Shown here one piece after another: positions 31,166-33,910 of a DNA stretch of 64,000 bases. A program made the position numbers and the translations under genes. Source of the DNA: Escherichia phage FV3; the sequence record NC_019517.1; one strand, written 5' to 3'. The first letter of the stretch is position 1. Every line of letters begins with the position of its first letter. The notes beneath the pieces are model-generated. The model was given only the letters and a program-made list of their open reading frames with translations, was not told where the DNA came from and did not search any database.

Positions 31166-31381
31166 ATGAAGATAGAAATATTTGGTGGAGCTGACAACAC
31201 TCGTGGCCTGATTTACCTTGAATTCGATGAATCATACCTGCCAGAGGTGTTAAATATAGACTCTGTTGCTGAGGCTTTGGGAGTAAACCCTAAAGAACTC
31301 CACTCTTGTGCTGAGATCGATGGTTGGGAAGAGACCATGAACATTGATTTCAGTGAAGTAGAGGATGAACCGCTGGACTGA
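31166..31381 (+). CDS. small acidic protein, MKVK family
   Basis: 71 aa, MKIEIFGGADNT...; last rightward gene before strand switch. Confidence 0.5.
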   Translation: MKIEIFGGADNTRGLIYLEFDESYLPEVLNIDSVAEALGVNPKELHSCAEIDGWEETMNIDFSEVEDEPLD

Positions 31382-31593
31382 CACACAATTAGCTGCCCGG
31401 CTAAAGTGCTGGAAGCACCTATAACACATCTTTCAACTAAATTTCCTACCACCACAATCACTTACCTCCCACACATGACTGTTTGCTTGTTTAGTGAGCA
31501 GTCATTCCTTGACATTCTTGCCTATCCTGATAAAATTAAGTTCTTCTCTTTTCTTTTACCGAGTAATTCGGGTTTTCTGTTCTCTTCGGTTTG

Positions 31594-31810
31594 AAGGGGT
31601 ATGGAGATACACCTGAGTGAACAGGGTGAACAACCGAACCTTTAGCTATGGCATTAGCATGGCGAAGCGGACGGGTGACGAAAGAGGGGCCGGAGGACAC
31701 CAGTCACTGCCATATGGTATATGGGTGATAACCTGAAGAGTCTGAATAAGTGTTTAAGTACCAGTCAGAGGAAAAGGTGAATGGTAGCCGAAGGGGGAGG
31801 GGGGTTTCTT
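31594..31810. other. G/purine-rich non-coding segment, candidate structured RNA
   Basis: No ORF >=60 aa on either strand; composition unlike flanking AT-rich DNA; ends in G-run GGGGGAGGGGGG; strand undetermined. Confidence 0.3.
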
Positions 31811-32589
31811 GTATCTTTAATTTGTATACTTTATATACACTTGTAAACCAATTCAATTAGAATATGGATACCACACAAAGTGGATAGAGGCAAATATTCC
31901 CTATTAAACTTGAATTATTTATAGAAAATACCACAACACTGCTTAAGTCTTTGATTTTACACACAAATATTACAAATATCCTGCCTCTATATTTAACATA
32001 CCTGTAACATATTCCATACTCTCCCTGATTGATCAATTCCCCAACTACATCCCCATATTTTCCCTTCCTGTACTACCCCTGCCCCGCCGGGAGTCCCGTC
32101 ATATCTGGCTTTCCAGCAAATATCACACCCACAAATATCATTGCCTGAAGAGGGTTTCATCCCATAATACCTGCCTTACCCGAAGAGCGCTTCATACACC
32201 ACGTAAATTTTTTAATTGACCTGCAATTTTCCTGCAGACCCACCCCCTGCCCAGCCGGAGAGGTTGGCTTTTCCCACACAGGCCTGAAGAGTCAGCCAGA
32301 AATATCTGAAGGGGGTCCAGTTCTACCACGATTTTGACCTGACCTACAGGAGCGCTGCCAGGCGGACGAAATGGGAATACTTCTCATTCTTATAACAATT
32401 CTCAAATATCGGGGCAGTGAGGCAAATTAATAGGCGAGGCCGTTCACACAGTGGCACAACATTTGCAAGCTATTTTGCGGGGGTGAATGAGAATACCTAT
32501 CATTGTGAGAATAGTTATCATTACGGGCAATTTAACATAATACCCATTATGCGCACCACTGGCGATACATACAGGGATTGATAACATGG

Positions 32590-33230
32590 GTTACTGTTTA
32601 CGCATATAACAATTGTATTTCTTATTATTTGTGGGGGATATAGTTAGCAACCAATAGATTAGTTATTAACCTGCGGACTTCTGACCGTCTAGACGTCCAA
32701 ACGCCCACACCACAAGGATTATACATACACTCCTGCATGTAAACAGGGCCGCAAAAATGCTACCATACCAGTTTGTAAATTTTCCATGCAGCACTTGACA
32801 AAGAGGAGAAAAACTTGTCTGACACACTGGACACCTTATACACCTTATACACTTTCGATACAATAACGATTGTTATTATTTCATGTTTCACTGTTCACGT
32901 ATAGATTGTTCCTGCATAGACTGTTTACGCCTGGATAGTTTACACCTTGACAGTTTACGCAGATATGATAAGCCATGACATTCGTTTGCATAGTTGCCTT
33001 ATTGTTACAGGTAAAACAATTACATTGTTAACTATTTCTTATCTTTCTCTTAGTCATCTAATGATTCCAGTCAGTATAGTTATGTACAGTAAACATTAGA
33101 CGACTAAATATTTCTCTGATTATAGTAACCTATCGTGACAATTTCTAACTGTTTACGAAAAATGTTGACACCTGGGCAGGTTTATGTTATGCAGTTTGTA
33201 CGAATAATTATTTTGTACAGGTATTGACTA
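32590..33230. repeat. iteron-like degenerate direct repeats (TGTTTACGC family) in non-coding strand-switch region
   Basis: CTGTTTACGC / TGTTCACG / GTTTACAC / AGTTTACGC / TGTTTACG / GTTTGTACG copies, densest 32889-32960; AT-rich; no convincing ORFs. Confidence 0.4.
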
Positions 33231-33605
33231 TTCCGTTATTCTGTGGTTGGAATAAATACTTTGCAGGCTATAGAATGGTGATCGTACGTGGATTCTGAGA
33301 TCTGTCGGCTATAGTTACACCCGATTTTTCACGTAGGACACGCTTTTTGGTTTGTGTAAGTGTATGACTTATAAGGGTTTTTAATTGTTGACAGTATACT
33401 GAAGATGTGCATCAGGTTAAATTTTGTGCAATAGCTGCATTACGTGCAATTTTGGGAGAGAAAACGGGTAAAAATAGCACCGCTACCACACAATGAAAGG
33501 TTATGCAATAGCTATTTTACATGTATATTTGTACAGTGTGCGGGATTGATGGCTCGTCAATTATTCCACTTGTCAGGTAGGGCCGTTTATGGTAGGAAAA
33601 GAGCA

Positions 33606-33633
33606 GACAAAAAGAAAGGGGCCTAAGCCCCCT
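33606..33633 (-). terminator. intrinsic terminator (leftward transcripts)
   Basis: GGGGGC-TTA-GGCCCC hairpin followed by U-run on minus strand, just after stop of 33647..33910. Confidence 0.45.
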
Positions 33634-33646
33634 TGATAATGTTGTA

Positions 33647-33910
33647 TTATTTGTTGCTCATCCAGTTTTCCCAAGCTGCCTGATAATCTGCCTCACTGCG
33701 GCGGATCTCTTCTTGTTCTTCAAGCCGGATCTCTTCTTCCAGGTACCCAAGGATATCGGATTTTTTGGTCTGGCGTAACATCCAATCATCTTTTTTACGA
33801 GTAAAGATCTTGTACGCTTTCTCGCAAACCTCTTTTTTACTACCTTTTTGGACTTCAAGAACTTTGTAGGCCATGTACTGAACTAGTTTGAGCTGATCAA
33901 GACGTTTCAT
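33647..33910 (-). CDS. hypothetical protein
   Basis: 87-aa ORF. Confidence 0.5.
   Translation of the reverse strand: MKRLDQLKLVQYMAYKVLEVQKGSKKEVCEKAYKIFTRKKDDWMLRQTKKSDILGYLEEEIRLEEQEEIRRSEADYQAAWENWMSNK

Follow-up and report, generated by a model that had tools for sequence, protein, structure and literature searches.

A Highly Conserved Non-Coding Unit behind a Predicted Promoter in the Convergent Gap of rV5-Like Escherichia coli Phages: A Candidate RNA Gene

What occupies the space between two converging gene blocks in Escherichia phage FV3, and does any of it behave like a gene? FV3 is a Vequintavirus (rV5-like) myophage of E. coli, and we analyzed a 64,000-nucleotide (nt) stretch of its record NC_019517.1, referred to here as the window. 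A sequence-only reading of this DNA had flagged positions 31594–31810 as a G- and purine-rich non-coding segment at a strand switch and as a candidate structured RNA. The strand switch is a convergent junction: the last + strand gene stops at 31381 and the − strand genes stop at 33647, leaving a gap of ∼2.25 kb (31382–33646) that lacks a credible open reading frame (ORF) and contains the flagged segment. The leftward block has its own terminator (33634–33615, − strand). Relatives leave the gap unannotated, and the rV5 genome paper drew it as a gray box labeled "non-coding" and noted a change in skew there (PMC3606486). We find that this 2–2.5-kb box, blank since that paper, holds a discrete and apparently promoter-driven unit that is the most conserved DNA of its neighborhood in rV5-like E. 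coli phages. We found no published description, transcriptomics, or annotation of this unit, which is best filed as a previously unannotated, strongly constrained non-coding unit and a new phage non-coding RNA candidate. Vequintaviruses (rV5, FFH2, Murica, BASEL Bas48–59) are widely isolated and have a place in typing sets and in candidate preparations for therapy and biocontrol.

A 3-kb query centered on the flagged segment matched 121 phage records at 90–95% identity. The conserved unit begins 51 nt before the flagged segment, at 31543, and ends at 31806, with the following features in and around it.

31474–31506, no strand assigned: inverted repeat CATGACTG-N17-CAGTCAT(T/G), read from the sequence; adjoins the −35 hexamer.
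31509–31536, + strand: predicted sigma-70 promoter, TTGACA, 16-nt spacer, TG-n-TAAAAT (extended −10); 11/12 matches in a promoter scan, start predicted near 31543.
31543–31806, + strand: conserved non-coding unit of ∼264 nt, candidate RNA; its purine-rich body and 3′ end make up the flagged segment.
31790–31806, + strand: G-tract GAAGGGGGAGGGGGG plus TT, the 3′ limit of the unit, with a T-rich stretch after it; homology stops exactly after GGGGGGTT in LL12, A112b, A135, and CYGL01.
31807–31892, no strand assigned: variable AT-rich spacer; ∼78 nt of unrelated sequence in its place in four genomes.

Across 21 distinct copies, substitutions are absent from the promoter hexamers and from 31543–31595 and affect only 15 columns of the unit, in which indels are confined to the G-runs. 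The 3′ limit is sharp. After ...GAAGGGGGAGGGGGGTT (31806), LL12, A112b, A135, and the metagenome contig CYGL01 carry unrelated DNA, and the replaced spacer rejoins the common sequence near 31893. This break, together with the invariance from 31543, defines the unit as 31543–31806. Conservation in related phages, on which the sequence-only reading had made its proposal depend, is pronounced: every one of the 116 full-length copies from the phage collection has an identity of 96.8% or more, and the whole gap is 87–95% identical. Invariant columns make up 94–98% of the unit versus 55–85% of the flanking protein genes. In a comparison with the divergent relative L016, the unit ranked first of 872 sliding 264-nt intervals, at 98.5% identity versus a median of 86%. 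Ten added divergent copies contributed only six more substitution columns and variants of G-run length. The window contains no paralogue of the unit, and scans of viral, metagenome, and genome contigs (L009–L011, L030, and 43 of the 45 in L034–L078) yielded nothing beyond copies from Vequintavirus and chance matches. Host mimicry, or an antisense role against the host, was rejected, as blastn gave no match at E ≤ 1 among 5,426 E. coli genomes.

The composition of the flagged segment is as unusual as had been claimed. Its 217 nt (A65 C34 G76 T42) are 65% purine and 35% G, and only 0.07% of 217-nt intervals on both strands of the window are equally purine-rich. The GC skew is +0.34 and the AT skew is +0.26. 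Landmarks include GAAGGGG at 31594, GAGGGGCC at 31685, and GAAGGGGGAGGGGGG at 31790–31804, and G5AG5 has its single occurrence in the window here. The described contrast with surrounding AT-rich DNA holds for the right flank (28.5% GC at 31800–31999) but not for the left, which is 40–46% GC. No credible ORF lies in the segment, the longest frames being 39–54 amino acids (aa) with GTG starts, and ARAGORN found no tRNA or tmRNA gene in the window, both in agreement with the earlier description. Annotation pipelines leave the locus either empty or with spurious small ORFs.

The predicted promoter is one of 20 sites in the window with at least 11/12 matches, all of which are oriented with local transcription; it does not appear in the rV5 promoter table (PMC3606486). 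Its −35, TG, and −10 elements are invariant in the 21 distinct copies. The spacer varies at seven positions and is 16 or 18 nt long, the 2 additional nucleotides being found in L008 and L016. In L008, an IMG/VR genome with 85% identity over the gap, the −35, TG, and −10 elements are intact, the spacer sequence and discriminator differ, and the sequence is nearly invariant from 31543 on. The predicted promoter is thus conserved as a promoter, with its hexamers kept and its spacer free to vary. In the adjoining inverted repeat, position 31506 is G in 18 of the 21 distinct copies, which gives perfect 8-bp arms, and the bin 31480–31499 is 100% invariant in 10 genomes. The ACTGTTTGC inside this repeat resembles ACTGTTTACGC, an iteron of the gap, and the repeat may serve the upstream operon as an operator or as a terminator hairpin. 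The sequence-only reading had overlooked the promoter, along with the terminal repeat and the cross-genus G-tract described below, although the segment that it flagged is real. It had placed that segment just past the last rightward gene; with a strong predicted promoter between the end of this gene (31381) and the segment, the latter is more than the trailing part of the upstream transcript.

The signature of the promoter and the sharpness of both limits argue that selection acts on a transcript, and ∼250 nt of invariant sequence without indels points to a specific RNA rather than to composition alone. The reading that we favor, with roughly even confidence, is that 31543–31806 is a stand-alone, sigma-70-driven non-coding RNA gene of the phage and that the RNA is the selected product. 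Host RNA polymerase with sigma-70 would produce a ∼264-nt non-coding RNA from the + strand. This RNA would consist of a 15-nt pyrimidine tract, a body rich in purines with several predicted hairpins and three GGGUGA motifs at even spacing, G5AG6, and a U-rich sequence. The 5′ pyrimidine tract is predicted to pair with the 3′ G-tract in a G·U-rich helix, which would close the molecule and, together with the U-rich tail, could halt transcription. Because the promoter is of host type, the RNA would act from early infection, and we infer that it acts in trans as a scaffold or decoy that probably binds protein. The unit offers a precise target, with 264 nt, one promoter, and one G-tract. The elements of the predicted RNA are as follows.

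31543–31557, + strand: 5′ polypyrimidine tract CUUCUCUUUUCUUUU; invariant in all copies, forms the closing helix in minimum free energy (MFE) and RNAalifold structures.
31559–31581, + strand: small hairpin CCGAGUAAUUCGG and then GUUUUCUGUU, from a terminator scan; invariant in all copies.
31624–31728, + strand: three GGGTGA (31624, 31673, 31723; spacing 49–50 nt), with AGGTGA at ∼31777.
31703–31729, + strand: 11-bp hairpin with a 2-nt bulge and a 3-nt loop at 31716–31718, predicted by RNAalifold and MFE.

The CUUCUCUUUUCUUUU tract and the 3′ GAAGGGGGAGGGGGG (31790–31806) form a predicted 15-bp duplex of −14.5 kcal/mol with eight G·U pairs, so that the end-to-end helix is only possible in RNA. 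This pairing counts for little, since a polypyrimidine pairs with almost any polypurine. The small hairpin, located 17–39 nt past the start site, may be a weak element of the terminator or attenuator type. Variation in the unit is highest at 31716–31718 (GGT, GAT, AGT, ..C), the loop of the 11-bp hairpin, and the variation of this hairpin is confined to that loop. Of 26 copies of GGGTGA in 128 kb (both strands), three are located in 105 nt of the unit. Nine of the 15 substituted columns are unpaired in the single-sequence MFE structure (hypergeometric P = 0.026; P = 0.035 by pair probability), which weakly suggests that substitutions prefer unpaired positions. Two substitutions at paired positions toggle between U·G and U·A and retain the pair.

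Several results weigh against the interpretation of this unit as an RNA gene. RNAfold detected no stability signal against dinucleotide shuffles, with z-scores of +0.09 and −0.45 for the + and − strands of the flagged segment and −0.83 for 31543–31830. Of the 84 pairs in the consensus structure, 80 never vary, none shows a compensatory change, two have one-sided compatible changes, and two are broken, by two single-genome substitutions, a comparison that has no power with copies this nearly identical. Rfam 15 (4227 models, among them 6S, CsrB, GOLLD, ROOL, pRNA, ribozymes, and riboswitches) gave no match in the whole window at the gathering threshold, and at E ≤ 10 it gave three chance snoRNA/sRNA matches in the gap, none within 31543–31806. 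The 3′ end has no canonical intrinsic terminator (no local hairpin and U-tract at 31780–31830); only the long-range 5′/3′ helix followed by UUUCUU is available there. No transcript data or transcriptome for the genus was found in the literature. Searches of Septuagintavirus loci with blastn and nhmmer --max did not recover the body of the unit outside the genus. Only the G-tract is common to other genera, which suits a locus-bound cis function at least equally well, and likely cis-acting DNA motifs crowd the gap around the unit, beside the terminal repeat. The term "structured" in the sequence-only reading, which had named a covariance-model scan against known families, covarying base pairs, and folding against shuffled controls as checks, therefore found no support beyond the hint from unpaired variable columns. 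Its idea of a small RNA or RNA-based regulator fares better in one respect, as the promoter, sharp limits, and conservation above the flanking genes argue for an RNA gene rather than junk.

Known RNAs offer partial parallels. The pRNA of Bacillus phage phi29 (RF00044) is a phage non-coding RNA of 120–174 nt, expressed from an early host-type promoter in non-coding DNA beside the genome end, and its sequence diverges fast from one related phage to another. The unit shares with it a promoter-driven non-coding RNA, predicted here, that is encoded at the genome end. It differs in having no Rfam match at E ≤ 10, nothing ties it to the portal or terminase, and the packaged phi29 DNA is protein-primed, in contrast to the direct terminal repeats of Vequintavirus. 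The predicted RNA is similar to CsrB/RsmZ and 6S RNA in size, in its paired ends, and in repeated short purine motifs able to bind a multimeric protein, but it has no Rfam match to CsrB or 6S, and no rod-like 6S fold is predicted for it. A CsrA-type GGA sponge was rejected: the flagged 217 nt contain five GGA (counted by eye) versus ∼7 expected from composition, and the hairpin-loop GGA (31603) is lost in four copies. A hammerhead reading of the recurring CUGAAGAG was also dismissed, with stems I and III absent by inspection and no Rfam match. In rV5-like phages, a single non-coding RNA has been described, pseudo-ToxI of PhiTE, which has an anti-defense role (PMC3475682). It comes from the same subfamily, but it consists of tandem repeats on a 36-nt ToxI unit, and 31543–31806 contains no tandem or direct repeat family. 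A link to pseudo-ToxI or to a type III antitoxin was rejected because the PhiTE locus lies among co-directional tRNA and structural genes rather than in the convergent gap and because the unit has no ∼34–40-nt tandem repeats. If the RNA acts in trans, it would represent a new family among the very few non-coding RNAs listed for virulent coliphages.

The G-tract shared across genera opens a cis-acting alternative, at the level of DNA or of an R-loop. The equivalent gap was located via the flanking 87-aa protein (67–68% identical) in Septuagintavirus (LTH01, A5-4) and via a short conserved block in Certrevirus (CR3, PBES 02). The 264-nt body is absent from both, and each contains one G-tract with T-rich sequence in the same position and orientation as in the window.

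L012 7895–7911, L013 8159–8175, L031 2933–2956, and L032 ∼615–640, − strand: G-tract and T-rich counterparts, matching the G5AG6 of the window.

The Septuagintavirus element is CCGTGGGGGAGGGGGAGGGGGTC(G/C)GATGTTTTC (G5AG5AG5), and the Certrevirus element is ATC(A/C)GGGGGTGGGGAGGGGCCTCGTTATTTTCC (G5TG4AG4); within Vequintavirus, the G-runs vary in length (G4–7 A G5–8). In Septuagintavirus, the neighborhood of the G-tract is the best-conserved part, with 96% identity in W70, in which the remainder is not alignable. A pyrimidine block complementary to the G-tract, ACCCTCCCGCC, lies 80–265 nt upstream in both genera and is 89% conserved between them. On this comparison, the G-tract is older than the rest of the unit.

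These features resemble CSB II of mitochondria, a length-variable GnAGm tract that needs a downstream T-rich sequence (PMC5027508). The G5AG6 and subsequent TTTCTTGTATCTTT of the window, 250 nt downstream of the predicted start, form a discontinuous non-template G-tract with T-rich sequence, as CSB II does in that study (PMC5027508), each tract lying some hundreds of nucleotides past a promoter. The locus could then be a cis-acting, transcription-coupled element at the genome end, in which transcription over the purine-rich non-template strand would yield a stable RNA:DNA hybrid and, at G5AG6 and the T-rich sequence, a hybrid G-quadruplex that stops RNA polymerase. The retained RNA would prime a T7-like replisome, or it would open the DNA so that concatemers are processed and the terminal repeat, 555 bp downstream, is duplicated. 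We consider this the main rival, possible although somewhat unlikely. In its favor, the G-tract and T-rich sequence are the only part common to the equivalent gaps of Septuagintavirus and Certrevirus, and the natural variation in GnAGm length parallels that of CSB II (PMC5027508). It is also consistent with the AT-rich stretch (28.5% GC) after the G-tract, with the nearby terminal repeat, and with iteron-like repeats confined to the gap. The rV5 genome codes for a DNA polymerase of family A and for a gp4-like primase-helicase, so that the phage replisome is T7-like, as in mitochondria, and the skew change at the gap came up when the rV5 authors looked for an origin (PMC3606486).

Other observations fit this cis-acting model poorly. 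R-loops need composition, not ∼250 nt of nucleotide-level invariance without indels, and CSB II function does not require an invariant sequence upstream, whereas the 250 nt ahead of the phage tract are invariant. G makes up 32–35%, and the sole G4+N1–10G4+ cluster is at the 3′ end, followed by AT-rich DNA, which departs from the usual R-loop pattern. The phage unit would use the sigma-70 RNA polymerase of E. coli; the CSB II study reports termination at G-tracts for POLRMT and T7 RNA polymerase (PMC5027508), and we found no report of it for the E. coli enzyme. The phage tract is also shorter: G5AG6 has 11 G, and 8–11 G in total gave almost no POLRMT termination (PMC5027508). Septuagintavirus and Certrevirus showed no strong conserved promoter ahead of their G-tracts. 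The unit resembles CSB II in its 3′ motif. We regard as doubtful the specific version in which host RNA polymerase is used as mitochondria use POLRMT, with a purine-rich RNA from a dedicated promoter stalling at G5AG6 and the T-rich sequence, an element kept in three or more genera of the Vequintavirinae, remaining as an R-loop or hybrid G-quadruplex, and priming the replisome or licensing terminal-repeat duplication. If true, it would be a bacterial-virus counterpart of the mitochondrial LSP–CSB II origin and would define the origin and the site of end processing in a phage group with therapeutic use. More generally, a G-tract acting in cis would mark where replication or packaging is controlled in the subfamily and provide a bacterial model for G-tract termination and priming.

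Both this model and the one considered next draw on the position of the unit relative to the physical genome ends.

32361–32819, no strand assigned: direct terminal repeat, 459 bp, corresponding to the physical genome ends; 555 bp downstream of the G-tract, context outside the candidate RNA.

The annotated repeat_region of phage Gotham maps to 32361–32819 with 94.6% identity over 459/459 nt, which places the concatemer junction inside the window. Terminal repeats of 458–459 bp have been published for the genus (PMC6563267, PMC7471380), and several other records begin or finish exactly at these coordinates. Both edges of the repeat lie in conserved islands (32360–32400 and 32740–32800). A 22-nt inverted repeat, 86% complementary, connects 32414–32435 in the terminal repeat with 33678–33699 in the 87-aa gene, 1.2 kb apart.

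The right end of T7, with phiOR and the concatemer junction, offers a further comparison. In T7, concatemer processing depends on transcription and on pausing of the polymerase close to the junction. The geometry of the phage locus is alike: a promoter, here a predicted one, points toward the terminal repeat from a few hundred bp within the right end, and arrays of short repeats border the terminal repeat. T7 differs in having its own RNA polymerase, a class II pause signal rather than a G-tract, and no ultra-conserved 264-nt transcript.

A purely DNA-level role appears improbable. The region would bind protein, for example as a pac-type site recognized by the terminase small subunit or by a different protein of end processing or partition, with the GGGTGA motifs ∼50 bp apart as binding sites and the promoter either incidental or only an aid to DNA opening. 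The three GGGTGA at 49–50-bp spacing and the terminal repeat 555 bp away are compatible with this model, as is the richness of the gap in conserved short repeats, including iterons and CCCACAAATATC-like motifs common to other genera. However, the DNA between the motifs is also invariant, and binding-site arrays usually tolerate change there. Conservation has its limit at the predicted transcription start, and the spacer drifts between hexamers that stay the same, which points to selection on transcription, and the pairing of the ends needs G·U, i.e., RNA.

The unit would have no function of its own if its conservation reflected a recent recombinational sweep or hitch-hiking with packaging or terminal sequences, which we judge very improbable. 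Recombination is active in this mosaic region, as the swapped downstream spacer in four genomes attests, but a sweep would not stop exactly at the transcription start and the G-tract. The block is 98.5% identical where its flanks are 60–90%, it is kept in 116/116 full-length copies, and the pattern of change in the promoter is element-specific, as expected under selection.

Finally, one or more very small proteins, such as a 14-aa ORF from the ATG at 31602 or a 25–39-aa frame at 31617–31736, hardly deserve credence despite abundant Shine–Dalgarno-like sequences (top 0.1% of intervals in the window; GAAGGGG just before ATG 31602) and "hypothetical proteins" called here in a few GenBank records, because natural variants abolish the ATG at 31602–31604 (G31603A, 4/21 distinct copies), the stop of its ORF (A31644G, TAG at 31643–31645 to TGG, 16 copies), and the ATG at 31658–31660 internal to the 39-aa frame (A31659T, one copy), and because variants in that frame are mostly non-synonymous and its three codon positions are equally invariant.

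The gap around the unit contains further sequence features. Just past the unit, at 31822–31836, is an AT-only hairpin, GTATA-N5-TATAC, whose stem is kept and whose loop differs at three positions by phage group (CTTTA versus TTATG); it is missing from the four genomes with a replaced spacer. A C-rich segment at 31955–32300, with GC skew down to −0.56, contains an internal duplication at 168-nt spacing (ACACACAAATAT / ACCCACAAATAT and CCCCTGCCCCGCCGG / CCCCTGCCCAGCCGG), and on a + strand transcript it would look like a Rho-utilization site. Specific pairing of the purine-rich unit with this downstream segment was rejected, the duplex energy being no better than for shuffled sequences (−131 versus −133 ± 8). 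CCCGCCGGG-like and CCCA(C)AAATATC motifs recur in the LTH01 (L012) and CR3 (L031) gaps. The iteron-like ACTGTTTACGC occurs on the + strand at 32593, 32890, 32920, 32950, and 33148, and all copies in the window with at most one mismatch are in the gap and on one strand. Three of these iterons are 30 bp apart just to the right of the terminal repeat, and the iterons may be an origin or terminase-binding sites. Relatives have ∼250–320 bp extra between two aligning blocks on either side of the iteron array. Six copies of CYGAAGRG lie on the + strand in a 600-nt part of the gap (31733, 31788, 32145, 32180, 32284, and 32306), and its variants GCCTAAAGAGGC and GCCTGAAGAGGC are found in sister-clade gaps. 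Enrichment of this motif as a gap-specific feature was discounted, as it is window-wide and tracks the gene sense strand (GAA-GAG = Glu-Glu), and only its local density in the gap is notable.

At the far side of the gap, an additional 420-nt gene (139 aa) separates the 87-aa gene from the gap in many relatives (L002 5409–5828, L003 5435–5854, L007 3055–3474; site in the window, 33640). This gene is missing from the window and from SYGMH1, and the Murica annotation describes it as "contains Rel homology domain". Nineteen GenBank MG0656xx records (e.g., L021, L022, and L029), labeled "Campylobacter phage", UNVERIFIED, with host C. jejuni, are Vequintavirus genomes ∼92% identical to the window phage. 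The host of these records is probably mis-assigned, or the preparations were contaminated.

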